Source: Candidatus Nomurabacteria bacterium
Lineage (GTDB): Bacteria; Patescibacteriota; Minisyncoccia; Phycocordibacterales; UBA9973
Length of the DNA stretch: 44,768 nucleotides
Direction: 5' to 3'
Assembly (NCBI GenBank): GCA_023267195.1
Contig: JAHFNT010000003.1
Location: forward strand, 77,200-121,967
Positions 3,272 through 44,527 of the stretch are shown here, in pieces. The notes below the pieces were generated by a model. The model searched no databases and was not told where the DNA came from. It worked only from the letters and a program-made list of their open reading frames with translations. Numbering within the stretch: position 1 is the first letter of the stretch; each line of letters starts with the position of its first letter. Made by a program: the position numbers and the translations under genes.

Positions 3272-5290
3272 GTGATACACCCAAAAGATCATTTGGACGG
3301 TTTGAATGATAGGCAAATAGAGGCGGCGCTTCATCTCGAGGGTCCGCTACTCATTGTGGCGGGTGCGGGTGCGGGGAAAACTAAAACTATCACGCATCGC
3401 ATCGTAAATCTGATTAAAAATGGCGTGGCACCGGAGAAAATTTTGGCAGTCACCTTTACCAACAAAGCGGCGAAGGAAATGCGCGAGAGAATTATGTCTG
3501 CTATGGGCGCCGAGAATCTTCTTGAGTGGGGTCTCTCGCAGGCCGGCGGGCCGAGAGGGAGCGCTCCGAGAGCACGCGGAGACAGCGACCGCACGAGAGA
3601 AGGATTTTCGGCGCCTTTCGTCAGCACTTTTCACTCACTCGGAGTTTATATTATAAAAGAAAATGCCAGACTGCTCGGGTTGACGAAGTATTTCACCATT
3701 TTAGATGAAGGGGATACTACCACGCTCATCAAAAATATACTGAAAGATCTAGGAATAGATCCAAAAATGTATGATCCCAGAAAAATAAAAAATATAATCT
3801 CGCGCGAAAAGGGAAAGTTTGTGCATTTGACTGATTATGCAGAACAAGAAAATGGAACCTTGGGTAAAATAGTGGCGCAGGTTTGGAATTTATATGAAAA
3901 ACAAAAAACGAAAGAAAATTCTCTTGATTTTGATGATTTGCTCTTAAAAGCAACGAAGCTTCTGAAAGAAAATGAGGAGATTCGCAAAATTTACCAAGAA
4001 AAATGGGAATATATCCACGTGGACGAATATCAAGACACGAATGAAGTTCAATATTTGATGTCTAAATTGCTTTCGGAAAAAAATAGGAATATTTGCGTTG
4101 TGGGAGATGCTGATCAAAATATTTATTCTTGGCGAGGAGCAAATCTAAAAAATATTTTGAGTTTTGAAAAGGATTATCCAAATGCCAAAATAATTTTACT
4201 TGAACAAAATTATCGCTCCACACAAAATATATTGGAAGCGGCCAATGAAATAATTAAGAAAAATAAATACCGACCGGATAAAAATTTATTTACTAAAAAC
4301 AAAACGGGTGAAAAAATCGGGTTGTATGAAGCGCTTGATGAGACAGATGAAGCAGAATTTGTGGCAACAAAAGTTTTAGAAATTATGGATAAGGGATCCG
4401 CTTTTAGCGAAATTGCAGTTCTCTATCGCGCGAATTTCCAATCACGCGCGCTAGAGGAGGCAATGCTTCGATACAATATTCCATATCAAGTTTTGGGCGT
4501 TAAATTTTTTGAAAGAAAAGAGATTAAAGACACCTTGGCGTATTTGCGCGCAGCTTTGAATCCGGATAGTTTGTCGGATATAAAAAGAATTATAAATTTC
4601 CCGACGCGAGGCATCGGCAAAGTGACCTTGGCAAAAATTTTTGCAAATGATAAGGAAAACCTGCCGACAAAAGTGAAAATAAAAGTAAATAATTTTTATG
4701 AAACATTAGAGGAAATAAGGAGGGAAATAAAAATTTTAAAAACAAGCGAAGTGATAAAATTTGTAGTGAAAAAGTCCGGCATTGAACAAGAACTCGCGAG
4801 TGGAACGGAAGAGGATCGAGAAAGATTGGAGAACATTAAAGAGCTCGCGACATTGGCCCTGAAGTATGATAATTTAACGGAGGGAGCTGGGGTAGAAAAA
4901 CTTTTAGAGGATGCTTCGCTGGCATCAGATCAGGATAGTTTGATAGAAAGAGGGACAAAAAAAGAATTAGTAAATGCGGTCAAACTTATGACTGTCCATG
5001 CTTCAAAAGGACTTGAGTTTAAAGGGGTTTTTATCACTGGTCTCGAAGATGGACTTTTCCCGCATGAACGGCAAAATGAAGTGGAGGGGCAAGATATGGA
5101 GGAGGAAAGGAGGCTTTTCTATGTTGCGCTTACTCGCGCCAAAGAAAAATTATTTTTATCCTTCGCCAATTTTCGCACCATTTTCGGCTCGCGCCAGATT
5201 AACACTCCTTCAGAATTTATCTCCGACATTCCAGCCGATCTGCTAGAGAGGGAAGGCGAGGCAAAAGGAATAAAAACTATTTACATATGA
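3272..5290 (+). CDS. pcrA: ATP-dependent DNA helicase UvrD/PcrA with an in-frame palindromic insertion
   Basis: AGAGAGKT, TFTNKAA, STFHS, VDEYQD, GDADQNIYSWRGA, LEQNYRS, TVHASKGLEF, EERRLFYVALTRA; GTG start. Confidence 0.97.
   Translation: MIHPKDHLDGLNDRQIEAALHLEGPLLIVAGAGAGKTKTITHRIVNLIKNGVAPEKILAVTFTNKAAKEMRERIMSAMGAENLLEWGLSQAGGPRGSAPRARGDSDRTREGFSAPFVSTFHSLGVYIIKENARLLGLTKYFTILDEGDTTTLIKNILKDLGIDPKMYDPRKIKNIISREKGKFVHLTDYAEQENGTLGKIVAQVWNLYEKQKTKENSLDFDDLLLKATKLLKENEEIRKIYQEKWEYIHVDEYQDTNEVQYLMSKLLSEKNRNICVVGDADQNIYSWRGANLKNILSFEKDYPNAKIILLEQNYRSTQNILEAANEIIKKNKYRPDKNLFTKNKTGEKIGLYEALDETDEAEFVATKVLEIMDKGSAFSEIAVLYRANFQSRALEEAMLRYNIPYQVLGVKFFERKEIKDTLAYLRAALNPDSLSDIKRIINFPTRGIGKVTLAKIFANDKENLPTKVKIKVNNFYETLEEIRREIKILKTSEVIKFVVKKSGIEQELASGTEEDRERLENIKELATLALKYDNLTEGAGVEKLLEDASLASDQDSLIERGTKKELVNAVKLMTVHASKGLEFKGVFITGLEDGLFPHERQNEVEGQDMEEERRLFYVALTRAKEKLFLSFANFRTIFGSRQINTPSEFISDIPADLLEREGEAKGIKTIYI
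3506..3615. repeat. GC-rich palindromic element in frame within uvrD/pcrA
   Basis: Imperfect terminal inverted repeat ggcgccgagaatcttct / agaaggattttcggcgcc; lengthens the region between motifs Ia and Ib. Confidence 0.85.
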
Positions 5291-6132
5291 AAATATTTCA
5301 TCAAGCAAAAAAATCTTTAGGGCAAAACTTTTTAAAGTCCGAGGTCGCGCTTCAGAAAATTATTGAAGCGGGAGAAATAAAACAAGATGATGTAATTTTA
5401 GAAATTGGTCCAGGGAGGGGAGCGCTGACTAAAAAGCTTTTAGCTTCTAGCTGTCAGCTTATAGCTGTGGAGAAAGACAAAGAACTCTTTGATTTACTGA
5501 AAGAAAAATTCAAAGAAGAGATTTTATCTGGTCAACTAATTTTAATATGTGATGATATCTTGAATTTTAATCTAAGCTATAAGCTATTAACTAAAAGCTA
5601 TAAGCTAATCGCCAATATTCCTTACAACATAACCGGCGCAATTTTAAAAAAATTTCTGACAGAGAAACAGCAACCGGAACGCATGGTTTTACTAGTGCAA
5701 CACGAAGTCGCGAAGCGCATAGTCGCGCGTGACAACAAAGAAAGTGTTCTCTCTATCTCAGTGAAGGCTTATGGGGAGCCTAAAATGATAATGAAGGTGG
5801 AGGCTCGATATTTTTCACCAGCACCCAAGGTGGATTCGGCTATAATTTCTATAAAAAATATTTCCAGAAAGAATTTTACCTCACCTCCGGCCCCTCTCCT
5901 TGCCAAGGAGAGGGTGGCCCAAAAGTCTTCCGGGCCGGGTGAGGTGAATGAAGAAAATTTCTGGCAAATAGTAAAAACCGGCTTCGCCCATAAACGAAAA
6001 AAGCTTGCTAGCAATCTAAAATCCCTAAAATATTTTAAGTCTATGGGGCAAAAAGAGAAACTGGAAAAGCTGGGCAACAAAAGAGCAGAGGATTTAACAC
6101 TTTCAGACTGGATTTCACTAGCTAAACAATAA
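5287..6132 (+). CDS. rsmA: 16S rRNA m6,2A dimethyltransferase RsmA/KsgA
   Basis: KKSLGQNFL, LEIGPGRGALT, ANIPYNIT, FSPAPKVDSA; ATGA overlap with pcrA. Confidence 0.96.
   Translation: MKIFHQAKKSLGQNFLKSEVALQKIIEAGEIKQDDVILEIGPGRGALTKKLLASSCQLIAVEKDKELFDLLKEKFKEEILSGQLILICDDILNFNLSYKLLTKSYKLIANIPYNITGAILKKFLTEKQQPERMVLLVQHEVAKRIVARDNKESVLSISVKAYGEPKMIMKVEARYFSPAPKVDSAIISIKNISRKNFTSPPAPLLAKERVAQKSSGPGEVNEENFWQIVKTGFAHKRKKLASNLKSLKYFKSMGQKEKLEKLGNKRAEDLTLSDWISLAKQ
5434..5607. repeat. Inverted pair of degenerate heptamer arrays inside rsmA
   Basis: 5434-5468 aagcttt tagcttc tagctgt cagctta tagctgt; 5573-5607 taagcta taagcta ttaacta aaagcta taagcta. Confidence 0.75.
5878..5945. repeat. REP-like composite palindrome (family A) in frame in rsmA
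   Basis: acctcacc...ggtgaggt outer stem; internal hairpins cctctcctt-gcc-aaggagagg and ggccc...gggcc; encodes TSPPAPLLAKERVAQKSSGPGEV. Confidence 0.9.
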
Positions 6133-6201
6133 ACCCTAGGGTATAATTAACTCATAATTAAATTATTTTGGTTAAAACACAAAAGGATACTCTCAATCGT
6201 T

Positions 6202-7089
6202 TTGGCGATGCTTTTTTTGGTCATCCTTGTTTTGATAAAAAATGCCTCTTCGGTCAAAAATACCGTGAGTTCAATTTTAGGAATGAATAAAAATGGGCTT
6301 GTTTATAGTGGCGCTACGGTGGGCGAGTTGGTAAACAAAGATACAGATGGAGATGGAATCTTGGACTGGGAAGAGCCATTGTATGGACTCGACCCCACCA
6401 CCAAAGAAACCACCCCGGGCGTGCCGGATAGCTCGGTAATCAAGAAATTAAAATCGGAATCAGAATATAATTTAGATGGAGCAGATGGATCTTATCCCAG
6501 CCCCGAGAATCTGACGGAAACAGATAAATTTTCACAAGAACTTTTTTCCACTGTTGCCACTTTAAATCAAACTGGGGGGTTAGACGAAATGACAGCAGAT
6601 AAAATCAGCAGTTCCTTGGCTGAACATATAAAAAATTCGGTTCCTAAAAAAATTTATACTCTGGCTGATCTTAAAATAATCAATAGTGATAGTAATCAAA
6701 CGATTCAAAATTATGCTGAGGTTTTGGATAATGTCTTCAAAAAATATCCAATGGATTACAGCATAAATGATGTGCTACAAAAGTTCGTGGTTGATGGAAA
6801 TAATGTTGATACTAGTGTCTTAGTCGAACTTGATCCAATAATAACGCAATTGAAAAAAGTTATAAGTGAAATGATAAAAATAAGCGTTCCAAAATCTCTA
6901 TCTTCTCTACATTTAGACTTTTTGAATGGGCTAGAAAGGCTGTCTGAAAACCTAAGCGACATAAAACTCTATGACAGCGATGCTATCGTGGCACTCGGGG
7001 GCGTAAGTCAATATAAAAATAATTCCGCACTACTCGAATCCAGCGTGAAAAATCTTGCAGATGAGATCGCCAATAAATTGAACAATTAA
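6202..7089 (+). CDS. Membrane-anchored protein with a TSP3-like Ca-binding motif; first gene of the T4SS-like cluster
   Basis: N-terminal TM; DTDGDGILDWEE motif; frame is open from 6151, so the start is uncertain. Confidence 0.75.
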   Translation: MAMLFLVILVLIKNASSVKNTVSSILGMNKNGLVYSGATVGELVNKDTDGDGILDWEEPLYGLDPTTKETTPGVPDSSVIKKLKSESEYNLDGADGSYPSPENLTETDKFSQELFSTVATLNQTGGLDEMTADKISSSLAEHIKNSVPKKIYTLADLKIINSDSNQTIQNYAEVLDNVFKKYPMDYSINDVLQKFVVDGNNVDTSVLVELDPIITQLKKVISEMIKISVPKSLSSLHLDFLNGLERLSENLSDIKLYDSDAIVALGGVSQYKNNSALLESSVKNLADEIANKLNN

Positions 7090-12881: not shown

Positions 12882-13970
12882 ATGGACAAAGAAGAATTAC
12901 AAAAAAATATAGCGCTGTATTATTCGAAACTTCCACCAAAACTGCAAGAAATGTTTTCTGGTATGAGCTGGCTTGAAACATTGAAGACAATAAGTTCAAA
13001 ATATAATTTAACCGAAGACCAAATTCAAACCCTCGGCACTGAAACAACTCTGGTTTTGCTAGGCATAATTCACCCAGATGAATACGAAAAAAAGTTGAGA
13101 GCTGAGATAGTGTTATCAAAAGATTCCATAGATAAAATGCTGTTGGAAATAAACAGCTCTGTGTTGGCTGCTATTCGCCCAAGTCTTACTGAAACATTTA
13201 GTAAAAATACTATTCCTCAAACACCGGAGGAACAAGAAATAGGTCAGGAATTGGATGCACGTCTTGAGAAATTGCCAGAAAATATCAAAGACATTATCAG
13301 CCAATCAAACTACCAAACAGCCCTGTATGGCATTGCAAAAGATTACAAACTCAATGTAATACAAATGGGCATATTGGAAACAAAAGTTATTGACCTGGTT
13401 CTGGGCAATTTACATCCAGATGAATTTGCAGATTCTTTGGAAACAGGCTTAGGGTTACCAAAAGAAAAAATTAGCATGCTTGTCAAAGACATCAATGAGA
13501 AAATATTTTTGAAGATTCGAGAATTGTTAAAATTGATGAACACTCCAGCTGGGGAGGAGCCGGTGGTGGAAGAAGAGGAATTTTCCCCCCTCCTTGTGGA
13601 GGAGGGGGCAGGGGGTGGTGATAGCTCTAGAACACCACCTCGCCCTTCGGGCACTCCTCCTCAGAAAGGAGGAGAAAAAAATAAAACCACAGAAATACTT
13701 AACAAGGCTGGGATTAGTTTAGTTGAACTGCCTGCTGGCATAAATCAAAACGATGTGAAGCCAACAGAAAAAAGGGAAGATATCTTGGCAAAAATAGAAA
13801 AGCCGGAGCTTCACCCAATCCTCGCACAAAAATTGTCTGGCTTTTCTAAAAATCCAGTCGTGGAAACGGATCATTCGTTGCACAACCTTTCTTCCAATAA
13901 AACAGTTCCCACTGCCCCAGAAGTAAATAAAATACCAAAAGTTGATCCATACCGGGAAATTCCTGAATAA
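12882..13970 (+). CDS. Cytoplasmic hypothetical protein with a tandemly duplicated helical domain and C-terminal DPYRE motif
   Basis: KLPPKLQE...LVLLGIIHPDEY...EINSSVL repeated as KLPENIKD...LVLGNLHPDEF...DINEKIF; ends VDPYREIPE. Confidence 0.8.
   Translation: MDKEELQKNIALYYSKLPPKLQEMFSGMSWLETLKTISSKYNLTEDQIQTLGTETTLVLLGIIHPDEYEKKLRAEIVLSKDSIDKMLLEINSSVLAAIRPSLTETFSKNTIPQTPEEQEIGQELDARLEKLPENIKDIISQSNYQTALYGIAKDYKLNVIQMGILETKVIDLVLGNLHPDEFADSLETGLGLPKEKISMLVKDINEKIFLKIRELLKLMNTPAGEEPVVEEEEFSPLLVEEGAGGGDSSRTPPRPSGTPPQKGGEKNKTTEILNKAGISLVELPAGINQNDVKPTEKREDILAKIEKPELHPILAQKLSGFSKNPVVETDHSLHNLSSNKTVPTAPEVNKIPKVDPYREIPE
13581..13678. repeat. Head-to-head doublet of family A REP-like palindromes, in frame in 12882..13970
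   Basis: cccctcctt-gtgg-aggagggg; ggtggtg...caccacc; gccc-ttcg-ggc; ctcctcct-cagaa-aggaggag. Confidence 0.85.
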
Positions 13971-15261: not shown

Positions 15262-17121
15262 ATGGACTTTTTTAAAAAATTATTTGGAAAGGAGGGAGAA
15301 AAGGACAACGTAGAGGCGCAAGCGTCTACCTTAGCTGTTTTGCCGGAGGAAATTTATGAGTCTGCTACCCTGGAACTCCAAGACGTGATCGCCCCGTCCG
15401 CCTTAAAAATCGGCCCCAAATCAATAAATTTGGGTGAAAAAATAGCCCAAACCTTTTTCATCATATCTTACCCGAGATTTTTAAGCGATAATTGGTTTTC
15501 TCCCATCATCAATCTGGATAAGGTTTTTGATATTTCAATTTTTATTCATCCAATAGATACTTCGCTCATGCTCAGACAGTTTCAGAAAAAGGTAGCCGAA
15601 GTACAGAGCCAAATAAGCGTACGGGAACAGAAGGGGATGGTACGCGACCCGATGCTCGATACCGCTTATCAAGATTTAGAAGGTCTCCGCGACAACCTGA
15701 TGCAAGCCCAGGAAAAAATGTTTGATGTGGGTATCTATATTACCATCTATGCAGACAATGAATTTGACTTGTTTAAAATTGAAAACGAAATTAAATCAAT
15801 GTTGGAATCTAAGCTCATCTATATCAAGCCGGCGCTTTTCCAACAAGAGGATGGTTTTAAGAGTGTACTGCCCATAGACACAGATATTTTAAATGTGAAC
15901 CAAAAATTAAACTCGGAACCTTTATCCAGCGTTTTTCCTTTCATCTCTTTTGACCTGACTTCTGATAGAGGAATACTCTACGGCATCAATAGGCACAATT
16001 CAAGTTTGGTTATCTTTGATAGATTTTCTCTGGAAAATTATAATTCAGTAACCTTTGCCAAGTCTGGTTCCGGAAAATCCTATGCGACAAAATTGGAAAT
16101 TTTAAGGTCGCTGATGTTTGATACCGATGTTATCGTCATCGATCCAGAAAGAGAGTATGAATTTCTTTCGGACGCTGTCGGGGGGAGATATTTCAGCATT
16201 TCTCTTTCTTCTGATCACCATATCAATCCTTTTGATCTGCCAATACCGCACGAAGGGGAAACCGCCGAAGATGTGCTACGTTCAAATATAATAAATTTGG
16301 TAGGACTTTTTAGGTTGATGTTAGGTGGACTCACCCCCGAAGAAGATTCTCTAGTAGATAGAGCCATTTCAGAAACTTATGCCATCAAAGACATCACGCC
16401 TGAATCTGATTTTTCAAATATTGAACCGCCGCTTCTCTCTGATTTTGAAATGGTGCTCTCGGGCATGGATGGTAGCGACTCTATCGTGCAAAGATTAGTG
16501 AAATACACGCGAGGCTCTTGGGCGACATTTTTAAATAGGCCATCCAATGTCGATATCAACAAAAAGTTCGTGGTATTTTCCGTCCGCGACATGGAAGACG
16601 AACTAAAACCAGTCGCCATGTATATCATCATGCATTATATTTGGAATACGATAAGGAAAAATTTGAAGAAACGCTTGCTCGTGGTGGATGAAGCCTGGTG
16701 GATGATGAAATCCGAAGACACCGCCTCGTTTTTATATTCTATTGCTAAGCGAGGCAGAAAATATTATTTAGGACTTTCCACCATCACCCAAGACGCAGCC
16801 GACTTCATGAAATCCCCATACGGCGTGCCCATAATTACCAACTCCTCAATCCAGCTTCTACTAAAACAGTCGCCGACCACTATCGATCTTTTGCAAAAAA
16901 CTTTCAACCTCACCGACGAAGAAAAATATTTACTTTTGGAGTCTGGCTTGGGAGAGGGAATATTCTTCGCTGGATTGAAGCATGTCGCCATTAAAATAGT
17001 TTCTTCTTACACCGAAGACCAGATTATTACCTCTGACCCATCGCAAATACTCTCCAACAGGAAAGCCAAGGAGGAACAAGAAAATGCAAACCTCACCCGA
17101 CCTTCGGCCACCCTCTCCTGA
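15262..17121 (+). CDS. virB4: VirB4-like T4SS ATPase
   Basis: Walker A AKSGSGKS, VIDPEREY, INPFD, Walker B VVDEAW, KRGRKY, ITQD. Confidence 0.9.
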   Translation: MDFFKKLFGKEGEKDNVEAQASTLAVLPEEIYESATLELQDVIAPSALKIGPKSINLGEKIAQTFFIISYPRFLSDNWFSPIINLDKVFDISIFIHPIDTSLMLRQFQKKVAEVQSQISVREQKGMVRDPMLDTAYQDLEGLRDNLMQAQEKMFDVGIYITIYADNEFDLFKIENEIKSMLESKLIYIKPALFQQEDGFKSVLPIDTDILNVNQKLNSEPLSSVFPFISFDLTSDRGILYGINRHNSSLVIFDRFSLENYNSVTFAKSGSGKSYATKLEILRSLMFDTDVIVIDPEREYEFLSDAVGGRYFSISLSSDHHINPFDLPIPHEGETAEDVLRSNIINLVGLFRLMLGGLTPEEDSLVDRAISETYAIKDITPESDFSNIEPPLLSDFEMVLSGMDGSDSIVQRLVKYTRGSWATFLNRPSNVDINKKFVVFSVRDMEDELKPVAMYIIMHYIWNTIRKNLKKRLLVVDEAWWMMKSEDTASFLYSIAKRGRKYYLGLSTITQDAADFMKSPYGVPIITNSSIQLLLKQSPTTIDLLQKTFNLTDEEKYLLLESGLGEGIFFAGLKHVAIKIVSSYTEDQIITSDPSQILSNRKAKEEQENANLTRPSATLS

Positions 17122-17146
17122 CGGGAGAGGGGCTGGGGGTGAGGTT
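17089..17146. repeat. Family A REP-like palindrome overlapping the virB4 3' end
   Basis: aacctcaccc...gggtgaggtt stem; the TGA stop lies in the ctctcc-tgac-gggagag hairpin; reverse orientation relative to the rsmA copy. Confidence 0.9.
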
Positions 17147-17184
17147 AGCTTTAGAAAATAATGTAATTGGGGTATAATTAGATC

Positions 17185-19309: not shown

Positions 19310-20677
19310 ATGTCAAAAAGAAATTTTATACTTTTAACAATAGTCTTGATCATCATAGTTGCGGTGGTGTTTGGATTTCTCTATTTTAGAAAAGGCGCGA
19401 CTCTGCCCGGAGAAGACGGCACTGGCACCAATTTTCTTTCACAATTTAATCCTTTTGGTAGTGGCACGAAGACACCCCCTGCTACCACCCCTCCGGCCGA
19501 CGTTTCTGGATATGAACCAACACCCAAAGCAGAGGTAAAATTAAAAAAAGTTTCCAGTATGCCTATTGCCGGATTCACTGTTTATCAAAAGGAGAGATTA
19601 AAAGAAATTTCTACTCCGGAGCCGGTAGAATCTACAACACCAACTTCAGACCCCTCCCTAACCCTCCCCTTAGCAGGGGCGGGGAAAAATTCTAAAACAA
19701 TTCCAACCCAACCACCGACAGAATTTATGCCAGCCTTGAGATATGTCGCTCGTAACAACGGAAATGTTTATCAAACTTTTGCAGACAAGTTGGTAGAAAA
19801 GAAATTCTCCAACACCATAATCCCAAAAGTGTATGAAGCTCTTTTTGGTAGCGGGGGGGAGTCTGTGTTTATGCGATATTTAAAAGCGGATGGCAAAACG
19901 ATTGAAACTTTCGCTGGGAATTTACCGAAGGAATTATTAGGGGAAGAACCGACAGGAGATAAAGAAATAAAAGGCTCATTTTTGCCGGAAAATGTCAAAG
20001 ATATGAGCCTATCTCCAGATGCTTTTAGCTTATTTTATTTATTTGAAGCCGAAGACAACATAGTAGGCACAACTTTAGACCTAGCAACCAACAAAAAAAC
20101 CCAAGTGTTTGATTCAGCTTTTACTGAATGGCTATCGTGGTGGCCAAACAGCAAAACTATTACTCTCTCTACCAAACCTTCCTCTGGTATCCCGGGATAT
20201 ATGTATACCCTCGATCCTAGCAGTGCAAACAATAAAGGTCTAACACAAGTCTTGGGCAATATAAACGGACTCACTACTTTGATGAGTCCGGATGGCAAAT
20301 TTATACTCTATGGTAACGACAACTTATCTCTGAGTGTTTACCAGAAAGACACCAAAACTTCAGAACTACTCGGGGTGAGAACTCTACCGGAAAAATGTGT
20401 TTGGGGTAAAACAAGCGCGGTTGTTTATTGCGCCGTGCCAAAATTTATTGAATCAGGTGGCTACCCAGAGAAGTGGTATCAAGGGGAAACATCTTTTTCT
20501 GATCAAATTTGGAAGATAGATGTTGCAGATGGAAATGCAACTATTCTGGTTGACCCGATAACCATCGAGGGAGGGGAGGAAATAGACGGCATTAAACTAA
20601 TGGTAGATGATAGTGAAAATTATCTATTTTTTGTAAATAAAAAGGATTCCTTCCTTTGGGAATTAAAACTAAATTAA
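19310..20677 (+). CDS. Membrane-anchored beta-propeller-like protein
   Basis: N-terminal TM, P/T-rich linker, LSPD / MSPDGKFILY blades, LPEKCVW, YLFFVNKKDSFLW. Confidence 0.7.
   Translation: MSKRNFILLTIVLIIIVAVVFGFLYFRKGATLPGEDGTGTNFLSQFNPFGSGTKTPPATTPPADVSGYEPTPKAEVKLKKVSSMPIAGFTVYQKERLKEISTPEPVESTTPTSDPSLTLPLAGAGKNSKTIPTQPPTEFMPALRYVARNNGNVYQTFADKLVEKKFSNTIIPKVYEALFGSGGESVFMRYLKADGKTIETFAGNLPKELLGEEPTGDKEIKGSFLPENVKDMSLSPDAFSLFYLFEAEDNIVGTTLDLATNKKTQVFDSAFTEWLSWWPNSKTITLSTKPSSGIPGYMYTLDPSSANNKGLTQVLGNINGLTTLMSPDGKFILYGNDNLSLSVYQKDTKTSELLGVRTLPEKCVWGKTSAVVYCAVPKFIESGGYPEKWYQGETSFSDQIWKIDVADGNATILVDPITIEGGEEIDGIKLMVDDSENYLFFVNKKDSFLWELKLN
19651..19685. repeat. Single family A-related REP-like unit in frame in a linker
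   Basis: cccctccctaaccctcccct-tagc-aggggcgggga; encodes PSLTLPLAGAG. Confidence 0.7.
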
Positions 20678-29735: not shown

Positions 29736-29759
29736 CCCTTCGACAAGCTCAGGGCAGGC
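29736..29759. repeat. Family B short REP-like element, intergenic
   Basis: cccttcgacaagctcagggcaggc; its reverse complement resembles the uvrB insert. Confidence 0.7.
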
Positions 29760-29760
29760 T

Positions 29761-30249
29761 TTATCGTAAGTGTGCGAAAGCAGTGAGCGCTATAGCAATC
29801 GCATCTAATTCATCATCCGATTGTTTTTTTGCGTCTACTTTTACTAAAAGTTTTACCATTTTTATTATTTGGGTTTTGTCTGATCGGCCGTAGCCTGTCG
29901 TCGCTATTTTTATTTGGGGAGGGGAAGCCTCAAAAATCTTTAAGCCAGCTTTTGCTGCCTCATATACTACCACTCCGCGCGCTTCAGCGACTTGCATGAC
30001 CGTCTTGTGGTTGGTATTTAAAAATAAAGTTTCAATCGAAAGAATTTCTGGTTTGTATTCTTTAATTATTTTTTTTACCTCTTCCCCAATTAATTTTAGG
30101 CGTTCTGAAAATTCTAATTTAGCAGAAGTGTTAAAACACTCCGAAAAAATTACTTGTTCCTTGCCCCGCGAAGCTTTAGCGAAGTGAGGTTTTTCAAGTA
30201 TTGCGATTCCCAACCTTTCATATCCCGGATCGATTCCCAAAATTCGCAT
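29761..30249 (-). CDS. ruvC: Holliday junction resolvase RuvC
   Basis: ILGIDPG, IETLF, AEARGVV, DDELDAIAIAL. Confidence 0.95.
   Translation of the reverse strand: MRILGIDPGYERLGIAILEKPHFAKASRGKEQVIFSECFNTSAKLEFSERLKLIGEEVKKIIKEYKPEILSIETLFLNTNHKTVMQVAEARGVVVYEAAKAGLKIFEASPPQIKIATTGYGRSDKTQIIKMVKLLVKVDAKKQSDDELDAIAIALTAFAHLR
30164..30189. repeat. Short palindrome-like element in frame in ruvC
   Basis: ccccgcgaagctttagcgaagtgagg; encodes PHFAKASRG in the loop after the second beta strand. Confidence 0.6.
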
Positions 30250-30271
30250 AAAACTATTTTAGCATTTTTAT

Positions 30272-30348
30272 TCCCCTCTTGAGGGGTGGCGCTTGCGCCG
30301 GGGTGGAAGAACCTCACCCCAGCCCTCTCCTGGCAAGGAGAGGGGGAG
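30272..30348. repeat. Intergenic doublet of family A REP-like palindromes
   Basis: cccctc-tt-gagggg-tggcgcttgcgccggggtgg and aacctcaccccagccctctcct-ggca-aggagaggg. Confidence 0.88.
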
Positions 30349-30349
30349 C

Positions 30350-35328: not shown

Positions 35329-37755
35329 GTGCCTGAAGTAATAAATCACAATATAAAAAAGCTAGTTTTGCTCGATTCTCACGCCATAATTCACCGTGCC
35401 TATCATGCTCTGCCTGAATTTTTATCCTCCAACGGAGAACCAACTGGTGCTCTGTACGGGCTTGCTAGTATGTTGATGAAGATAATTACTGATTTGAAAC
35501 CAGACTATATTATCGCTTGTTATGATTTACCCCAGAAAACTTTTAGGCACGAAGCGTATGATGCCTACAAAGCTGGCCGGGCGAAAGCGGACGAGGCGCT
35601 GATCGCGCAGCTAAAAAATTCCCGACAAATTTTTGAAGCTTTCAATATTCCCATTTATGATGCCCCGGGTTTTGAAGCTGATGATGTTTTAGGGACAATA
35701 GTCGAAAAATATAAAAAAAATAAAAACATAGATATTATTATCGCTTCGGGAGACATGGATACGATGCAGCTCGTGGATGATAAAAAAGTGCAGGTTTATA
35801 CTTTGAAGAAGGGAATCAACGACACGATTTTATACGACGAGGAGGCAGTTCTGGAGCGTTTTCATTTTAAGCCAAAATTTTTACCAGATTACAAAGGGTT
35901 GCGCGGAGATCCGTCCGACAACATTGTTGGTATAAAAGGTATCGGAGAAAAAACCGCTGAAAATTTGATTGTAAATTTTGGAACAATAGAAGAAATTTAT
36001 AAAAAAATTAAAAAAGATAAAGAAACCTTTTTGAAAATAGGTATTTCCGAGAGAATGATCGAACTTTTAAAAAATAACGAAGAAGAAGCCTTGTTTTCTA
36101 AAACATTAGCCACTATCCGCACAGATGCGCCGATCAATTTTGAATTACCGGAAAAAACTTTTTGGGAAAACGCGGATTTAAAAAAAATAGAACAAGTATT
36201 TATTAAATTTGAATTTCGCAGCTTATTTGCCAGATTAAAAAACTTTTTTGGGAATGGGCAGAAGGCAAATCCAGCAGAATTTTCTCAGGTCCTCGGTTCT
36301 CCGGGGCCCCATACCCCGGCCAGACCATTCGAAAATTCTCTAGATTTGCCTTCTGCAAAAAAACTTCAAGAAGCCAGTATCGCTCTTTGGCTTATCAACT
36401 CTGACATTTCAAATCCCAAATTGGAAGATATTTTGATGTTCGCCAAGACTTCTTCCTTTGAAGTGGCTTATGAATATATTTTTAAAATATTGAAAGAAAA
36501 AAAACTAGATAAAGTTTATGAGGAAATAGAACTTCCGATCGTGCCAGTGGTGAAAGAAATGGAAGATCATGGAATTTTGATAGATAAAAAATATTTTGAA
36601 AAATTATCAGAAGAATATCACAAAGAATTAGATGTTTTAACGAAAAAAATATACAAAATGGCCGGAGTGGAGTTCAATATAAATTCACCGAAACAATTAG
36701 GAGAAGTGCTTTTTGGCAAATTGGGCTTAAAATCAAGCAAAAAAAAGAGTGCCAGTGGTTCTTTCTCTACCAAGATCTCTGTCTTGGAAGAACTAGAAGA
36801 AGATAATTTAATTATCAAAGAAATAATGGCATATCGTGAATTACAAAAATTACTCTCTACCTACATCGATGTAATTCCGAAAATGGTGGCGGAAGATGGA
36901 CGTTTACACGCAAAGTTTTTACAAAACGGAACTACCACCGGAAGATTTTCTTCACAGGACCCAAATTTGCAGAATTTACCAATCAAAACAGAGTTAGGGA
37001 AGAAAATTCGCCATGGTTTTGTCGCCCAAAAAGGCTCGAAGCTTTCTGCTTTTGATTATAGTCAGATTGAATTGCGGGTGATCGCGATGCTTTCAGGGGA
37101 TAAAAAGATGACGCAAGTTTTCAAAGACAAAAAAGATATTCACGCGGGGGTAGCTTCTTTTGTTTTTGAAGTACCGATAGAAAAAGTCGATTTAGAGATG
37201 CGTCGTCAGGCGAAAGTGATAAATTTTGGCATTATTTATGGCATGGGTGTTTCGGCGCTTCGCAAGAATCTTGGAGGTACACGCGAAGAGGCGCAAAAGT
37301 TTTATAATAATTATTTTAATCAATTTTCCGGGGTGCGTGATTATCTAGAAAGTATTAAGACTTTTGCTATTAAAAATTCTTATACCGAAACATTATTTGG
37401 GCGCAGAAGATATTTCCCCAATATTAATTCTAGAATTCCTTTTTTGAAAAACATGGCTGAACGTACCGCGACCAACGCTCCAGTGCAAGGGACAGCCGCA
37501 GATATTATTAAGCTTGCTATTAGACTAGCCGAGGAAGATTTGAAAAAAGCGAATTTGTTGGATCGGGTACATCTCGTGCTACAGATTCATGATGAGCTTG
37601 TTTACGAAATAGAAGAAAAAGTGCTCAAAGAAGCCGAAGTTATCATAAAAAAAGCGATGGAAGAAGTTCTGGAACGCTCCTATCTACACTATAAAGCCGA
37701 GATACCTCTTTCCGTCCATTCTGGTTCGGGAGACAATTTGGGGGAAGTAAAATAA
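35329..37755 (+). CDS. polA: DNA polymerase I (5'-3' exonuclease + polymerase; 3'-5' exonuclease region reduced)
   Basis: EADDVLGT, GDPSDN..GI.GIGEKTA, TGRFSSQDPNLQNLP, DYSQIELR, AKVINFGIIYG, LQIHDEL. Confidence 0.97.
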   Translation: MPEVINHNIKKLVLLDSHAIIHRAYHALPEFLSSNGEPTGALYGLASMLMKIITDLKPDYIIACYDLPQKTFRHEAYDAYKAGRAKADEALIAQLKNSRQIFEAFNIPIYDAPGFEADDVLGTIVEKYKKNKNIDIIIASGDMDTMQLVDDKKVQVYTLKKGINDTILYDEEAVLERFHFKPKFLPDYKGLRGDPSDNIVGIKGIGEKTAENLIVNFGTIEEIYKKIKKDKETFLKIGISERMIELLKNNEEEALFSKTLATIRTDAPINFELPEKTFWENADLKKIEQVFIKFEFRSLFARLKNFFGNGQKANPAEFSQVLGSPGPHTPARPFENSLDLPSAKKLQEASIALWLINSDISNPKLEDILMFAKTSSFEVAYEYIFKILKEKKLDKVYEEIELPIVPVVKEMEDHGILIDKKYFEKLSEEYHKELDVLTKKIYKMAGVEFNINSPKQLGEVLFGKLGLKSSKKKSASGSFSTKISVLEELEEDNLIIKEIMAYRELQKLLSTYIDVIPKMVAEDGRLHAKFLQNGTTTGRFSSQDPNLQNLPIKTELGKKIRHGFVAQKGSKLSAFDYSQIELRVIAMLSGDKKMTQVFKDKKDIHAGVASFVFEVPIEKVDLEMRRQAKVINFGIIYGMGVSALRKNLGGTREEAQKFYNNYFNQFSGVRDYLESIKTFAIKNSYTETLFGRRRYFPNINSRIPFLKNMAERTATNAPVQGTAADIIKLAIRLAEEDLKKANLLDRVHLVLQIHDELVYEIEEKVLKEAEVIIKKAMEEVLERSYLHYKAEIPLSVHSGSGDNLGEVK
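36258..36356. repeat. 99-bp palindromic element in frame in polA
   Basis: Perfect 14-bp terminal IR gcagaaggcaaatc / gatttgccttctgc, then agaattttc / gaaaattct, apical ccgggg...ccccgg. Confidence 0.9.
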
Positions 37756-38247: not shown

Positions 38248-38910
38248 ATGATCTATCTTTTTTCCGGGGATGATGCTAAGAATAAAATTATAAATTATGA
38301 AAAATTTATCAAGGCCCTGCCTGCGCAGGCAGGTATACCTCTCACGCAGATTTTTGCTGTGAATAGAAATGATTTTAATCAAATGCAAATTGAAAGTTTT
38401 TATTCCGGCTCCAGTTTGTTTTCAAATTTATCTGCAGTAATATTCCAAAACGTTCTGGAATACGAAGAAACGAGGGATTTTGTGTTGGAAAAATTGAAAC
38501 TTATGGGAGATTCCGCTAATTCTTTTGTTTTTCTAGAAGGGAAGCTCAGTAAGCCGATACTGGATACTTTCAAAAAAGCGCGCGCCGAAATCAATGTTTT
38601 TGAATTGCCAAAAGAAAAAAAGGAAAAATTCGACAATTTTTTGGTTGCCAATGCTTTTGCCAACAAAGATAAATTGAACACTTGGATTTACTTTCGCCAA
38701 GCGATAGACGTCGGAGTAAGTCTCGAAGAAGTTTCGGGGGTTTTGTTTTGGAAAATTAAAGACCTGATCCTAAAAAAAAATTTTAGTAAATTTAAAGAAG
38801 AACAACTTAAAAATTTTATCATGAAACTTTCTTATCTTTTGCCTGAAGCCAGGAAAGAAGGTCGCGACGCCGAGTCCGCTTTTGAGCAATTTTTACTTGA
38901 GGTTTTTTAG
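38248..38910 (+). CDS. holA: Divergent short DNA polymerase III delta subunit (HolA-like)
   Basis: MIYLFSGDD, SSLFS, F.VANAF..KD; ends FEQFLLEVF. Confidence 0.6.
   Translation: MIYLFSGDDAKNKIINYEKFIKALPAQAGIPLTQIFAVNRNDFNQMQIESFYSGSSLFSNLSAVIFQNVLEYEETRDFVLEKLKLMGDSANSFVFLEGKLSKPILDTFKKARAEINVFELPKEKKEKFDNFLVANAFANKDKLNTWIYFRQAIDVGVSLEEVSGVLFWKIKDLILKKNFSKFKEEQLKNFIMKLSYLLPEARKEGRDAESAFEQFLLEVF
38316..38333. repeat. Perfect 18-bp palindrome within the holA-like gene
   Basis: cctgcctgcgcaggcagg equals its own reverse complement; spans LPAQAG. Confidence 0.8.
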
Positions 38911-39632: not shown

Positions 39633-41771
39633 GTGATGTCTAATATTTTCAAAATAAAAAGTCCTTTTGAGCCAGCTGGAGATCAGCCAGTGGCTATTTC
39701 GAAGCTCTTGGAAGGTTTAAATAAAGGCATGCAAAAGCAGACGCTTTTGGGAGCGACGGGGACGGGTAAGACTTTTACCATGGCGAATGTGATCGCGCAG
39801 TACAACAAACCGACGCTCGTGATTGCGCACAATAAAACACTTGCCGCTCAACTCGCGCAAGAATTTAGATTATTTTTCCCCGATGCGGCAGTGCATTATT
39901 TTGTTTCTTATTATGACTATTACCAGCCGGAAGCTTATATGCCAGCTTCGGACACTTATATCGAAAAAGATGCGTCTATCAATAAAGAAATAGATATGTT
40001 GCGTCATGCGAGTACTCAAGCGCTTCTTACTAGGCCGGATGTGATTATCGTCGCTTCTGTTTCTTGTATTTACGGCTTAGGCAGTCCAGAAGAATACGAA
40101 AAAGTGAACTTAAAACTCGAAATCGGAATGAAACTAGATCGACTAACTTTAATGAAAAAGTTAATTGAAATTCACTTTGAGCGCACCAATGCGGATTTAA
40201 CTCCGGGATCTTTTCGTTCGATCGGCGCGCGGGTGGAATTTATGCCTGTTTCCGAGACAGTGATGTACCAGATAGAATTTGCAGATGGAAAAATTGCAAA
40301 AATTACAAAAGTAGATCCGATTTCTGCACAAATTATCAAAGAAGAAAAAAATATTTTTATTTTTCCAGCAAAACATTTCATTACTGAAGATAAAAAGAAA
40401 GCAAATGCATTAGTAGCAATTAAAAAAGAATTAAATACGCAACTGAAAAAGTTTGAAAAAGAGGGAAAGCTACTCGAAGCGGAGAGAATCAAACGTCGAA
40501 CCAACTACGATCTCGCGATGATCAAAGAGATCGGTTATTGCAACGGTATTGAAAATTATTCACGACACCTCTCCGGTAAAGCTGAAGGAGAACCACCAGA
40601 AACACTGCTATCGTATTTTCCGAAAACAGGATTTTTAACGATTATCGATGAGTCACATGTAACCTTGTCGCAATTAAACGGCATGTATGCGGGAGATGCT
40701 TCGCGTAAAAATACCCTGGTGGAATACGGTTTTCGTTTGCCTTCAGCCAAAGACAATCGACCGCTTAAATACAATGAATTTCAAGAAAGAATTGGTCCAG
40801 TAATTTATACCAGTGCTACGCCGAGCGAAGTAGAACGCAAGGAAAGCGAGCAAATCGTCGAGCAAATCATTCGTCCGACGGGGTTGGTGGATCCAGAAAC
40901 GATAGTGCGCCCGGTGAGTGAAAAAACAAGTTACAAAGGGCAAATTCAAGATTTTATTTCAGAAACAGAAAAAACAATCGCGAAAGGTTTCCGAGTTTTG
41001 GCGACGACCCTAACCAAAAAAATGGCAGAAGACCTTTCTGTTTATTTAAAGGATAAAAAAATAAAAGCAGAATATTTGCACAGTGATATTAAGACGATGG
41101 ATAGAATTAAAATTCTTACAAGATTTAGAAAGGGAGGGCTTGCCCCGAGCGGAGCCGAGGGGTTTGACGTATTGGTGGGAGTGAACTTGCTTCGCGAGGG
41201 GCTCGATTTGCCGGAAGTGGCCTTGATTGGGATTCTCGATGCCGACAAAGCAGGATTCTTGCGTTCTGAAACTTCGCTCATTCAGACTATCGGCCGCGCG
41301 GCGCGCAACAGTGAAGGAAAAGTGATTCTCTATGCCGATGTTCTGACGGAAGCGATGGATTATGCGCTCAAAGAGACAGAGCGCCGTCGAAATATTCAGC
41401 TAGCTTATAACAAAAAGCATGGCATTACTCCAAAGACGATTATGAAAAAGATCCAAGATATTACCGAAGAGATGGAAAGTGAGCATGGGAAAGTGGTAAA
41501 TGCTGAACTCGGGCTTGATCTAGAAGTTTTCAAACGCGCTTATGCTAAAGAATTAAAAAAAGATAAAAAATCTAATAAAAAAGTGCCAAATACCAGTTTG
41601 GGGCAATCTTATTTATCTGACGAAGAGATTGGTAATTTGATTTACGAAAAAATCATAAAAATGAAAGAAAAAGAAATGAGTAAAGCCGTCAAAGAACTCG
41701 ATTTCGAAACTGCTGCCATCTTGAGGGATGAGATTGGGGTACTCAAATTGCGTTTGGAAAAGAAGCAATAA
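39633..41771 (+). CDS. uvrB: Excinuclease ABC subunit B
   Basis: PAGDQP, GATGTGKTFT, YYDYYQPEAY, IDESH, NLLREGLDLPEV, QTIGRAARN, LDFETAAILRD. Confidence 0.98.
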   Translation: MMSNIFKIKSPFEPAGDQPVAISKLLEGLNKGMQKQTLLGATGTGKTFTMANVIAQYNKPTLVIAHNKTLAAQLAQEFRLFFPDAAVHYFVSYYDYYQPEAYMPASDTYIEKDASINKEIDMLRHASTQALLTRPDVIIVASVSCIYGLGSPEEYEKVNLKLEIGMKLDRLTLMKKLIEIHFERTNADLTPGSFRSIGARVEFMPVSETVMYQIEFADGKIAKITKVDPISAQIIKEEKNIFIFPAKHFITEDKKKANALVAIKKELNTQLKKFEKEGKLLEAERIKRRTNYDLAMIKEIGYCNGIENYSRHLSGKAEGEPPETLLSYFPKTGFLTIIDESHVTLSQLNGMYAGDASRKNTLVEYGFRLPSAKDNRPLKYNEFQERIGPVIYTSATPSEVERKESEQIVEQIIRPTGLVDPETIVRPVSEKTSYKGQIQDFISETEKTIAKGFRVLATTLTKKMAEDLSVYLKDKKIKAEYLHSDIKTMDRIKILTRFRKGGLAPSGAEGFDVLVGVNLLREGLDLPEVALIGILDADKAGFLRSETSLIQTIGRAARNSEGKVILYADVLTEAMDYALKETERRRNIQLAYNKKHGITPKTIMKKIQDITEEMESEHGKVVNAELGLDLEVFKRAYAKELKKDKKSNKKVPNTSLGQSYLSDEEIGNLIYEKIIKMKEKEMSKAVKELDFETAAILRDEIGVLKLRLEKKQ
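41138..41162. repeat. Family B element in frame in uvrB
   Basis: gcttgccccgagcggagccgagggg; adds about GLAPSGAE before the conserved FDVLVG. Confidence 0.75.
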
Positions 41772-41845: not shown

Positions 41846-44527
41846 ATGAAAAAAGAACCATTAGAAAAAATTGTGGTTAAGGGGGCTAGGACCCATAACT
41901 TGAAGAATATTAACGTAGAAATGCCACGCAATAAAATGGTGGTTATTACTGGCGTGTCTGGATCGGGAAAATCATCGCTTGCTTTTGATACTATTTTTGC
42001 TGAAGGGCAGAGAAGATATGTGGAATCTCTGTCTTCGTATGCTCGGCAGTTTTTAAACCAAATGCCAAAGCCAGACGTGGATGAGATCACAGGGCTTTCG
42101 CCAGCGATTTCGATTGACCAAAAATCTCGTTCGAATAATCCGCGTTCGACTGTCGCCACGATCACTGAGATTTATGATTATCTGCGGGTGATGTATGCGC
42201 GCATCGGGCATCCACATTGTCCGCAGTGCGGGGAGGAAATTAAAAAACTTTCGAATGAAGAAATTTTAAATTTTATTTTGGAAAAAGTTAAGAATTTTGA
42301 CAAGAAAAATTTCTCCGGATTACTCCAGCCTGTGGCTGGAACCTTCCCTGTTCGAAATTCTTCTTCTAAAAATTCAAAAAAAATACGTAAAGTCATGGGT
42401 GTGGAGTGGGACGAAACAGAAATCAGTATTTTTTCTCCAGTAGTTCGCGGACGTAAAGGGGAATACTATCAACTGCTTTATGATTTACTCGGTAAAGGTT
42501 TTGCTGAGATTCGTCTGGATGGAGTGATGAAGAAATTGCGCGAGCAAATTACTCTTTCCAAAAACAAAGCGCACAACATAGATATTTTGGTAGATCATTT
42601 TGCGGTGCATGAATTTGCAGATGACAAAGAGGGTAGCCGTATGCGTTTAGCGGAGGCGATAGAACGCGCGCTGATAGAGTCGGATAACCTAGTGGCGATC
42701 AAAATCGGCGAGGAGGAATTTATTATGTCCGCTAAATTTGCTTGTAAAAATGATGGATTTTCTTTTCCGGAAGTGGAACCGCGACTTTTCTCTTTCAACT
42801 CTCCGTATGGTGCCTGCCCGGCTTGTAATGGCCTCGGCTCGAAATATTTTATGGGTGATGAACCTTGTGATGTTTGTCATGGAGCGCGGCTTCGCCCTGA
42901 AGCGTTAAATGTTTTTCTGGAAGCTGAAGTTGTCGGCCAAAAAGGAAAAACACAAAAAAGTAAAGTAAATATTTTGGATTTGGCTGAACTTTCGATCAAA
43001 GATGCGCATGATTTTTTCAAAAATCTAAAACTTTCTGAGCAAGAAAAAGAAATTTCCGTGCCAGTCGTGAAAGAGATAGAAGCCCGACTGCAATTTATGC
43101 TCGACGTGGGTTTAGATTATTTACAACTTTCTCGCAAAGCGAACACACTCTCCGGCGGAGAAGCGCAGCGTATTCGCTTGGCTTCTCAGCTCGGCTCACG
43201 GCTCGTCGGCGCGCTCTATGTGCTCGACGAGCCGACGATCGGGCTGCATCAGCGAGATAACGACAGACTGATCAGAACCTTGCAGAATCTTAGAGATTTA
43301 GGCAATACGATTTTGATCGTGGAGCACGACGAAGATACGATTTATGCCTCGGATTATATCGTGGACATCGGGCCGAAGGCTGGAGTGCATGGCGGGCAAG
43401 TAATCGTTTCGGGATATTTGGAAGATTTACTGACGGCGAAAAAAAATACCAGCAATTCTCGCACTCTTTCATATCTGCGGGAAGAAACCAGAATAGAAAT
43501 TCCAGAAAAACGTCGCGAAGCGAAAGGCGTGCTTCGTATTGCTGGCGGAAAAATTTTCAATATTAACAATCTAAACGTCGAAGTGCCTCTCGGCGTCATG
43601 ACTTCGATCACAGGAGTTTCTGGTTCGGGAAAAAGTTCTTTCATGTATGAGATTTTGTATAAAAATCTGCAAGCGCGTTATGAAAGAAAATATCGCACGG
43701 CGCAAGTTTTCAACTGCTCTTCTTTTGCTGGTACCGAGTATCTGTCTCGCGCGATTTTAATCGACCAATCACCGATCGGCCGGACTCCGCGTTCAAATAT
43801 TGTTACTTATACTGGCGCTTTTACGCATATCCGAGATCTTTTTGCGACGACAGAAGAAGCGCGACTACGTGGCTGGAAAGCGAACCGTTTTTCTTTCAAT
43901 GTCAAAGGCGGGCGCTGTGAAGCCTGTGAAGGAAACGGAGAAATAGCAGTGGAAATGCATTTCTTGCCGACTGTTTATGTCACTTGTGATGTGTGCAACG
44001 GTAAAAGATTTGATAAAGAAACTCTCACGGTAAAATACAAAAAGAAAAATATTTACGAAGTGCTACATCTGACCGTAGAAGAAGGTTTGAAGTTTTTTAA
44101 AGATATTCCAGCCATTTCTGACAGGTTGCAAACTTTGCTGGATGTCGGTTTAGGATATTTAGAGCTAGGTCAATCTGCGACGACGCTTTCCGGTGGAGAA
44201 GCGCAACGGGTAAAAATCTCAAGCGAGCTCTACCGCCCTCATTTAGAAAAAACTATTTATCTTTTAGATGAGCCGACTGTGGGGTTGCATTATGATGACG
44301 TGCAGAAACTCTTAGAAGTTTTGAATAAACTTGTTTCTAAAGGCAACACAGTAGTATTGATCGAACACAATCTTGATATTATCAAGAGCTCAGATTACAT
44401 TATAGACATCGGCCCAGAAGGGGGAGTAAATGGCGGAAATATTGTAGCTAAAGGCACACCGGAAGACGTTGCCAACAATGCAAAAAGTTTTACTGGTAAA
44501 TATCTTAAAAAAGTTTTACGTAAATGA
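41846..44527 (+). CDS. uvrA: Excinuclease ABC subunit A
   Basis: GARTHNLKN, two GVSGSGKSS and two LSGGEAQR motifs, zinc fingers; ATG at 41846 preferred over TTG at 41828. Confidence 0.98.
42292..42375. repeat. 84-bp imperfect palindromic element in frame in uvrA
   Basis: gaattttgacaagaaaaatttc / gaaattcttcttctaaaaattc stem with apical tccagcc-tgt-ggctgga. Confidence 0.75.

Follow-up and report, generated by a model that had tools for sequence, protein, structure and literature searches.

The 44,768-nucleotide stretch of a Candidatus Nomurabacteria genome that we analysed (C6:77200-121967, i.e. positions 77,200 to 121,967 of contig JAHFNT010000003.1; the whole stretch is called the window below) carries ten short GC-rich blocks within genes. 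We put at roughly 80% the probability that these blocks derive, as copies or as remnants in decay, from several families of hairpin-forming repeats that are selfish and spread horizontally. The host genes are uvrD, rsmA, a gene for a protein that ends in DPYRE, the end of a virB4-like gene, a gene for a propeller protein, ruvC, polA, a holA-like gene, uvrB and uvrA, and in each of them the open reading frame (ORF) runs uninterrupted through the block, as the initial annotation of the sequence had stated. What decides the matter is that we are dealing with more than variable loops: the inserts can be recognised as DNA elements, and these return across genes and species. The case is built on insertion polymorphism, on families that are distributed over several genes and species and that occur in both orientations, on hot spots, on covarying stems and on the use of one reading frame per orientation. 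The window consists of dense housekeeping genes on both strands and is part of an assembly of 648,148 bases (7 contigs, 39% G+C, completeness rating 91%); near-identical DNA was found only in groundwater metagenome runs. The blocks stand out as islands of 55-75% GC inside AT-rich genes of this 39% GC genome.

We compared the genes of the window with their orthologues in the same genus (up to 40 genomes) and in 12 other families of its order, and in addition with 13 syntenic stretches (this genome is G000 and the other G numbers are relatives), aligned the proteins and read the DNA beneath each difference in length. Each of the ten blocks proved to be extra sequence that is missing from most same-genus orthologues; as anticipated initially, the inserts were absent or polymorphic in close orthologues and their boundaries coincided with the stems. 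The occupancy differed per site: the uvrD site of the window (site 1) held a long insert in 9/30 sequences and none in 21/30, the rsmA site an insert in 6/20 and none in 14/20 (including one sequence with an assembly gap further downstream), the site of the uvrB block an insert in 3/30 and none in 27/30, and the holA site extra residues in 3/30 and none in 27/30; an insert of the window type was found in uvrA in 4/30. The DPYRE and virB4-end blocks occurred in the window alone (1/13 in both cases, the latter being absent from 12/12 relatives). The polA and propeller blocks are located in variable linkers that hold different inserts by species, differing in almost every one, and the window copy of ruvC is just ~4-5 residues longer than its same-genus orthologues.

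Each block was folded as single-stranded DNA and compared with 200 dinucleotide-preserving shuffles, the outcome being expressed as a z-score and as the number of shuffles that folded at least as well. Seven of the ten in-gene blocks folded better than nearly all of their shuffles: polA (z -8.3, 0/200), the virB4 end (z -5.0, 0/200), uvrD (z -4.6, 0/200), DPYRE (z -4.0, 1/200), rsmA (z -3.8, 0/200), uvrA (z -2.8, 2/200) and holA (z -2.1, 7/200). The palindrome-like character originally ascribed to all ten blocks holds for these seven, but not for the window copies in the propeller gene (z -0.4, 69/200), ruvC (z +0.3, 117/200) and uvrB (z +1.3, 184/200), which folded no better than chance and are short remnants. 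Of the intergenic relatives proposed at the same time, 30268-30352 is indeed a string of hairpins (z -3.2, 1/200), but 29728-29765 contains a repeated motif and no palindrome (z +0.3, 120/200). The blocks are of three kinds: i) copies of the TM motif described below; ii) hairpin elements of 90-140 nt (the uvrD, polA and DPYRE blocks) with a conserved GC-rich core and copy-specific arms that are complementary to each other; and iii) mini-palindromes and short motifs. The view that several distinct hairpin families sit in frame in core genes was supported.

The uvrD block (3506..3615, + strand) belongs to the second kind and consists of a conserved two-hairpin GC core within an outer stem of ~20 bp. 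It adds ~30-35 residues to a UvrD/PcrA-like helicase between motif Ia and the TFHS strand; in a comparison with PcrA (1pjr) residues 81-115 of the query were without counterpart, a position that runs from the helix after motif Ia to the next strand. The same element recurs in rsmA of G013 with its 65-nt core almost unchanged and with different outer arms, and cores of this type (65 nt, 77-98% identical) were found in genes as unrelated as uvrD, rsmA and those for tRNA synthetases, TsaD and TGT. Over 55 pairs of 11 genomes, the identity amounted to 86% for the core, 71% for the host uvrD gene, 47% for third codon positions and 46% for the arms. Within every copy 16-23 of the 26 pairs of the outer stem are Watson-Crick, and the consensus fold of 13 copies comprises 50 pairs, 31 of which show compensatory double changes; the covarying pairs include two stems inside the core. 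G:T mispairs outnumber A:C mispairs by 41:8 on the element's own strand, whichever its orientation in the gene (one conserved T:G pair accounts for 11 of the 41).

A covariance model of the uvrD-type element (R1), to which the window copy scores 120 bits, was used for the counts in the genus and the order. It recovered one copy in this genome, ~108 matches in the genus (32/41 genomes, up to 10 per genome), and matches in 23/151 genomes of the order sample (22/131 genera, up to 12 per genome), where the distribution was patchy and the scores were as high as those of the training copies. From this patchy distribution and the high identity we infer a selfish, horizontal spread, which would be lineage-wide and proceed at the level of the genus and the order. 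The earlier suggestion that the families are spreading within this genome was not upheld: the complex families are single-copy here and the dynamics are found at the genus and order level. A Pfam scan of ten host proteins of uvrD-type elements returned three class I aminoacyl-tRNA synthetases, TsaD, two queuine tRNA-ribosyltransferases, UvrB and a RecG-like helicase, one protein remaining below the Pfam cut-off and one without match. As the host proteins elsewhere are this varied, the repair-gene flavour of the window reflects the gene content of the window, in line with the caution that was voiced originally.

The uvrD-type copies obey a strict frame rule. In 27/27 pairs of a long ORF and a spanned copy the element was read in one phase per orientation (12 forward, 15 reverse); the pairs derive from 26 copies, many of them orthologous and one of them spanned on both strands, and represent ~10 distinct sites as judged by their flanks. 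The forward reading contains ..GVSQADGPRGSA..DSDP.. and the reverse reading ..ALPLGSSACETP.., and in 6-13 of 13 copies the alternative frames of the core are open as well. The sites themselves are shared between families. At uvrD site 1 at least four different families were found across the nine filled species of the 30, and a second uvrD site, which is empty in the window, was filled in 21/30, sometimes by two elements in tandem; the uvrD-type core at this site points forward in four species and is reversed in at least five. A second uvrB site was filled in 11/30. The arms could be explained as inverted copies of the host flank in uvrD of G006; as a general rule this origin is unsupported, since the arms at uvrD site 2 measure 20-30 nt as against 3-6 variable host codons at the empty sites. 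Separately, uvrD of G045 (L043) contains a long insertion (CLIENTK..) directly after the conserved DQ of VVGD.DQ that is unrelated to the hairpin elements and looks like an intein.

The polA block (36257..36356, + strand) is located in frame in the DNA polymerase I linker, between the 5'-nuclease and polymerase parts, and combines a conserved core (GGTCCTCGGTTCTCCGGG..CCGGCCAGACC) with a copy-specific outer stem of 25 bp. We recovered 15 copies of this type from polA, uvrD, rsmA and uvrA/uvrB loci of relatives, the complementary arms being specific to the copy; examples of the recurring core are those of G006 and G037 (in uvrD) and of G018 (in rsmA). Together with the uvrD type it represents the core families of 90-140 nt, which in relatives also include a GRSDG and an RHS type. 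In all of these, each copy carries its own outer stem of 15-30 bp that is near-perfect within the copy and unlike that of any other copy. Compensatory changes were found in the other families as well (14/22, 18/31 and 21/34 pairs), the ratio of G:T to A:C mispairs was 34:6 in the GRSDG type, and the predicted RNA stability of the hairpins lies between -60 and -80 kcal/mol. The DPYRE block (13583..13672, + strand) is a composite in which three to four GC hairpins follow one another in tandem, in frame within a linker of low complexity; the composite was met again in three relatives, in uvrA of G045 and G040 and in both uvrA and uvrB of G033, and metagenome contigs break at the block. Two observations stand beside these. 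The first 13-14 nt of the polA-type core (AGGTCCTCGGTTC, 36286-36300) are also found in the T-arm region of the tRNA gene at 38976-39048 (match region 39018-39052) and in other tRNAs of the genome, which may be a coincidence or may hint at a derivation from tRNA. The only GRSDG-type copy of the genome lies at C2:5522 on the 6.5-kb contig C2, which also carries a fragment of rve (integrase core) at C2:132-416.

The blocks in rsmA, at the virB4 end and at 30304 are members of the pan-bacterial BoxC/PIT/TM motif family, and on this point the initial picture needs correcting: one of its families has been described already. The rsmA (ksgA) element (5879..5946, + strand) is in frame at the junction of the methyltransferase and C-terminal domains, where a structure comparison with KsgA (6ifs) showed an insert of ~20 residues; its build is CCTCACC..CCCTCTCC-loop-GGAGAGGG..GGTGAGG, the same family occupies the same site in G006 and G013, and the same type of peptide is found in the polA linker of two species. 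The second element (17089..17147, + strand) forms the 3' end of the gene for the VirB4-like ATPase, supplies the final 10 codons as well as the stop (17119-17121, in the hairpin loop) and is 88% identical over 58 nt to C6:62618. The third is the last part of an intergenic composite of four hairpins (30268..30349) that adjoins the stop of the minus-strand gene at 30350-31393 and is 91% identical over 34 nt to C5:125069. All three blocks share the build CCTCACC(C)-spacer-CCCTCTCC-loop-GGAGAGGG-spacer-GGTGAGG, and the three defining TM blocks (a CCCTCACCC-like third strand, CCCTCTCCC and GGGAGAGGG) are present at 5879-5946, 17089-17147 and 30304-30348, in the order and with the spacing given in Table 1 of PMC4666352; the loops measure 3-7 nt here versus 1-6 nt in the search of that paper. 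A variant of the group, A' (CCCTCCCCT-loop-AGGGGCGGG; 19651..19685, + strand), is in frame in the linker of the secreted beta-propeller-like protein and 93.5% identical over 31 nt to C6:31191; the same linker holds other inserts in G007 and G018.

The motif has been known since the 1990s and was reported from more than 260 genomes (Holder et al. [quoted passage not shown] A scan of one genome per prokaryotic species with the first three TM blocks likewise indicated a wide spread across phyla: at least 120 stretches matched, among them stretches of Planctomycetota, Bacteroidota, Cyanobacteria, Chloroflexota, Proteobacteria, Verrucomicrobia, Actinobacteria and others. The 80 loci listed contained 111 matches; less than one match is expected by chance (our own arithmetic, with uniform base frequencies). 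The available part of PMC4666352 treats the motif as an intergenic repeat of E. coli and other species and does not mention copies that are read as protein, although copies inside genes may stand in its supplementary lists. In the window, two of the three copies are read as protein or supply the stop codon, and the TM triplex motif can therefore occur inside coding sequence. The window copies are full palindromes including the GGTGAGG partner; their folding was computed as hairpins, and they may form the triplex. At the virB4 block, the summed contig depth in runs X1-X4 rose to 176-247 (17093-17147), with 10-13 loose contig ends on each side, a spike that points to many other organisms of the same groundwater carrying the TM motif.

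The remaining blocks are short. The holA-like (DNA polymerase III delta-like) protein owes its 5 extra residues to a perfect 18-nt palindrome (CCTGCCTGCGCAGGCAGG; 38316..38333, + strand). The uvrB insert (41136..41162, + strand; GC-rich, net +8 residues, GLAPSGAEG) is a shortened form of a 15-residue hairpin insert in G046 and G051, and the uvrA insert (42302..42365, + strand; ~21 extra residues) is a decayed, AT-richer hairpin that also occurs in G050, G007 and G010, with a clearer outer stem in these. The ruvC insert (30164..30187, - strand; PHFAKAS, ~4-5 extra residues) resembles the 'TSLKL' motif of rsmA in G006 and of uvrA in G048 and G035 and is a weak case. Just past the ruvC stop, a GC-rich repeated motif of the CTTCGACAAGCTCAGGGCA type lies between the genes (29736..29760). 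Judging from the longer uvrB inserts of G046 and G051, the short motifs may be remnants of longer elements.

A census of this genome was made with crude gene calls (625 ORFs, 92.7% of the genome), and second copies were sought by blastn-short and by family searches. Further copies were found for the TM/A' group (~14 loci, 5 in ORFs and 2 overlapping ORF ends), the 18-nt palindrome (5 copies, all 5 in ORFs), the motif at 29736 (9 copies at ≤ 3 mismatches, 6 in ORFs) and part of the DPYRE block (a 29-nt piece that is identical at C1:80464); one further motif had 4 copies, all 4 in ORFs. For the uvrD, polA, uvrA, uvrB and ruvC blocks these searches returned no second copy in the genome, and copies of their families were found in relatives only.

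We propose that repeat elements insert into housekeeping genes at positions that tolerate them, namely surface loops and linkers between domains, and that they would persist only if the frame is left open; insertions at other sites or in other frames would be removed by selection on the host protein. The blocks would then be translated as extra loops, as their frames suggest. The elements may move via a folded single-stranded DNA or RNA intermediate of fixed polarity, an assumption that we base on the covariation and on the G:T bias of the element strand in two of the four families, and they would be mobilised by an enzyme that is supplied in trans or by host recombination. The complementarity of the arms may reflect either selection on the element or correction by template switching. 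More tentatively, and with greater doubt than confidence, the 90-140 nt elements can be considered a new, structure-defined class of mobile element, in which a two-hairpin core sits within a freely varying but pairing stem, is copied as a single strand of fixed polarity by an unrecognised enzyme or by its own activity, enters a few permissive loops of essential proteins time and again, is filtered by selection to one frame per orientation, and provides a steady source of new protein loops in reduced genomes such as these.

Several results weigh against the proposal of selfish, mobile hairpin families. Movement was not observed; no target-site duplication was recognised when filled and empty sites were compared, and the metagenome contig joints listed included neither empty alleles nor joints that neatly skip an element. 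Most of the complex families are single-copy in this genome, many of the compared copies are orthologous so that the counts do not represent independent events, and the compensatory changes in the arms could arise by template-switch 'palindrome correction' without selection. The G:T bias is not general: the ratio of G:T to A:C was 8:13 for the polA type and 21:13 for the RHS type, i.e. without clear bias. Translation is argued from the frames, and no RNA run matched 3300-6100. The genus loci were first collected around genes, and in the unbiased sample of 57 further genus copies, 23 were well inside long ORFs, 1 was near an ORF end and 33 were intergenic or covered only by short ORFs; 17 of the 24 best-scoring ones were in long ORFs. 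Finally, this genome yielded no match to PF01797 (Y1/IS200-RAYT), PF07282 (TnpB) or PF01609 (DDE_Tnp_1), and one rve fragment, at the end of the small contig C2; Y1 genes, present in 90/151 genomes of the order, were not associated with the uvrD-type element (12/23 genomes with and 78/128 without it). The mobilisation by RAYT transposases that had been put forward initially therefore finds no backing in this genome or across the order.

Among 41 uvrD-type copies from other genera, 26 were without spanning ORF and only ~3 were in long ORFs, so that the element is mostly intergenic there (e.g. in G100) and has many genic copies in this genus; lineages seem to differ in their tolerance or purging of genic insertions. 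Of the five genomes that are richest in uvrD-type elements, G100 and G020 contain Y1 and the other three (G059, G109 and G172) RVT_1, and none contains TnpB; the mutual exclusion of Y1 and RVT_1 is a lead and not a result, five genomes being too few to judge.

The alternative that survives best, which we nevertheless consider unlikely, is that the blocks are modules of benefit to the host, in which a folded core (triplex, cruciform or mRNA hairpin) acts in pausing replication, transcription or translation, as a recombination signal or as a protein-binding site, and in which the structure would be kept by selection. That the cores are more conserved than the host gene and that the stems covary at the same site across species would fit such a role, as would the conservation across phyla of a TM motif that is a stable triplex in vitro (PMC4666352, in the part available) and the frequent position of copies at gene ends (17089, 29736 and 30268). 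However, most orthologues do without the blocks (21/30 for uvrD, 27/30 for uvrB and for holA), families replace one another at one site and occur in both orientations, and the G:T bias tracks the strand of the element and not that of the mRNA. Earlier work cited in the same part of PMC4666352 moreover found PIT elements to be without promoter or terminator activity.

Much less probable is that no transposition is involved and that the blocks arise by local slippage or template switching in quasi-palindromes and pass between species only via homologous recombination of whole gene segments after DNA uptake. Template switching would yield copy-specific, self-complementary arms such as those observed, the same site is filled in several species, and neither a transposase nor a target duplication was found. 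Local mutation and exchange of alleles can, however, not create 65-nt cores that are 77-98% identical in unrelated genes, and the patchy occurrence (22/131 genera) with up to 12 copies per genome is likewise at odds with it.

We give slightly less credit still to the idea that the blocks are missing from the mature protein, by excision from the mRNA, by ribosome bypass as in the mitochondrial 'byp' GC clusters of Magnusiomyces, or by removal from the protein. As RNA, a hairpin of -60 to -80 kcal/mol inside a coding region would be an obstacle to ribosomes, translation bypasses the GC clusters of one yeast (PMC8811140, in the part available), and a conserved structured core has a ribozyme-like look. 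Yet every in-gene copy is open in frame, with one phase per orientation in 27/27, which would be unnecessary if the block were removed, and the intergenic copies are less constrained; the blocks are also far too short for inteins. Rfam 15 gave no match to a ribozyme or intron: in the window only the tRNA reached the gathering score and no family was returned for the elements, and in eight element-bearing loci at E ≤ 0.1 the sole match was sub-threshold and located in helicase coding sequence (RF03531, a C. difficile sRNA 'included into helicase gene', at L025:3373-3470 and L026:406-503, in uvrD outside the elements). A hammerhead was considered for some uvrD-type copies and rejected: the CUGACGAG in question is part of a covarying stem (CCGACGGG elsewhere), CUGAnGA is unconserved and no GAAA follows.

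Artefacts of assembly or binning of metagenome-assembled genomes, such as chimeric joins at GC-rich repeats, can practically be dismissed: contigs of the runs do end at the DPYRE and TM blocks, positions 17111 and 17144 showing many loose ends that are foreign, and runs of N or X occur at element sites (rsmA of G008, uvrD of G046), but the same inserts are found at the same codons and in frame in dozens of independently assembled genomes, a 16.8-kb contig shows 0 differences across the blocks in uvrD and rsmA, and the DPYRE block is covered by a contig of a second sample.

With selfish hairpin elements as the preferred reading, the closest known system in behaviour is formed by the Rickettsia palindromic elements (RPEs), followed by the GC clusters of yeast mitochondria; membership of neither is claimed. 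The comparison with the RPEs, made initially, is apt. According to the available part of PMC10969869, R. conorii has 44 insertions from ten families, of which nearly half are in frame; the RPEs form several palindromic families of ~100-150 bp, as compared with the strongly folding 90-140 nt here, lack a transposase of their own, and occur in frame and with a conserved peptide in unrelated housekeeping genes of a small, AT-rich, gene-dense genome, to which the window elements, as far as their reading frames indicate, correspond. The likeness claimed is one of behaviour. The lineage is another, a groundwater bacterium with a genome of 648 kb. It differs further in that only the core is conserved here and the outer arms vary per copy yet remain complementary, that the same few hot spots are contested by several families, in either orientation, and that the copy number is low (1-12 per genome for the uvrD type).

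The yeast GC clusters are also GC-rich palindromes in an AT-rich genome, with polymorphic in-frame insertions (var1), families that merge and shuffle, and a suspected structure-based mobility or self-activity without dedicated transposase (PMC8811140, as far as its available part goes). They are organellar and eukaryotic, and the likeness is therefore functional only; their terminal AG/TAG repeats, which the same part takes as target duplications, have no recognised counterpart here, and they are bypassed in one yeast, whereas the frame evidence here favours translation. Less similar are the repetitive extragenic palindromes (REP/BIME), which are short, are thought to move as folded single strands and would match the common occurrence of Y1 genes in this order. 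REPs are, however, extragenic, while the ten window blocks and 23/57 further genus copies lie in ORFs (long ones in the latter case), and a cognate, co-occurring Y1 gene was not found (no PF01797 in G000; 12/23 versus 78/128 in the order). [quoted passage not shown] They have conserved terminal inverted repeats, whereas the arms here are 46% and the core 86% identical between copies. They also have a target-site duplication and a parent insertion sequence; no duplication was recognised at the filled and empty sites compared here, and the genome gave no match to DDE_Tnp_1 or TnpB and one rve fragment (on C2). Covariance models of known structured RNAs, ribozymes and introns (Rfam 15) gave no match to the elements. 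In the literature on candidate-phyla-radiation bacteria, Patescibacteria and Parcubacteria we found no description of such elements, with a coverage that did not extend to all journals. The elements are probably RPE-like selfish DNA of unusual build. New are the combination of a core with covarying arms, the hot spots that families have in common, the strictness of the frame rule and the triplex motif in coding sequence.

Selfish palindromic DNA that is read as protein on a routine basis is known from few systems (Rickettsia and the yeast mitochondrial GC clusters), and how such elements move is unsolved in both. The lineage studied here has many families and has been sequenced for dozens of species; its filled and empty sites can be resolved to the single codon, both orientations occur and the covariation is clear. 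These assets make questions on the mechanism testable: those on the strand, the structure, the choice of target and the filtering by frame. Those who annotate small genomes of uncultured organisms can read odd GC-rich 'low-complexity' loops in conserved enzymes, and breaks of contigs at these loops, as element insertions, and for the BoxC/TM triplex motif, long known yet unexplained, an occurrence within coding sequence has now been seen.

The metagenome contigs also bear on how such sequences assemble. A contig of the source sample covers 3000-13662 without difference. Gaps (N, read as X) occur in rsmA of G008 (L012), downstream of the insert site of the window, and at uvrD site 2 of G046 (L036), and in view of these runs the elements probably break or gap assemblies. 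Finally, AT-rich heptad repeats of the form AGCTNNN (AGCTTATAGCT etc.) were found in both orientations at 5430-5466, 5575-5606, 14457-14536 and 15182-15262. The first two encode normal-length, conserved segments of rsmA and the other two are intergenic; metagenome contigs join these places (e.g. 5608 to 14568, and 15212 to 5577), and the heptads thus act as assembly repeats.

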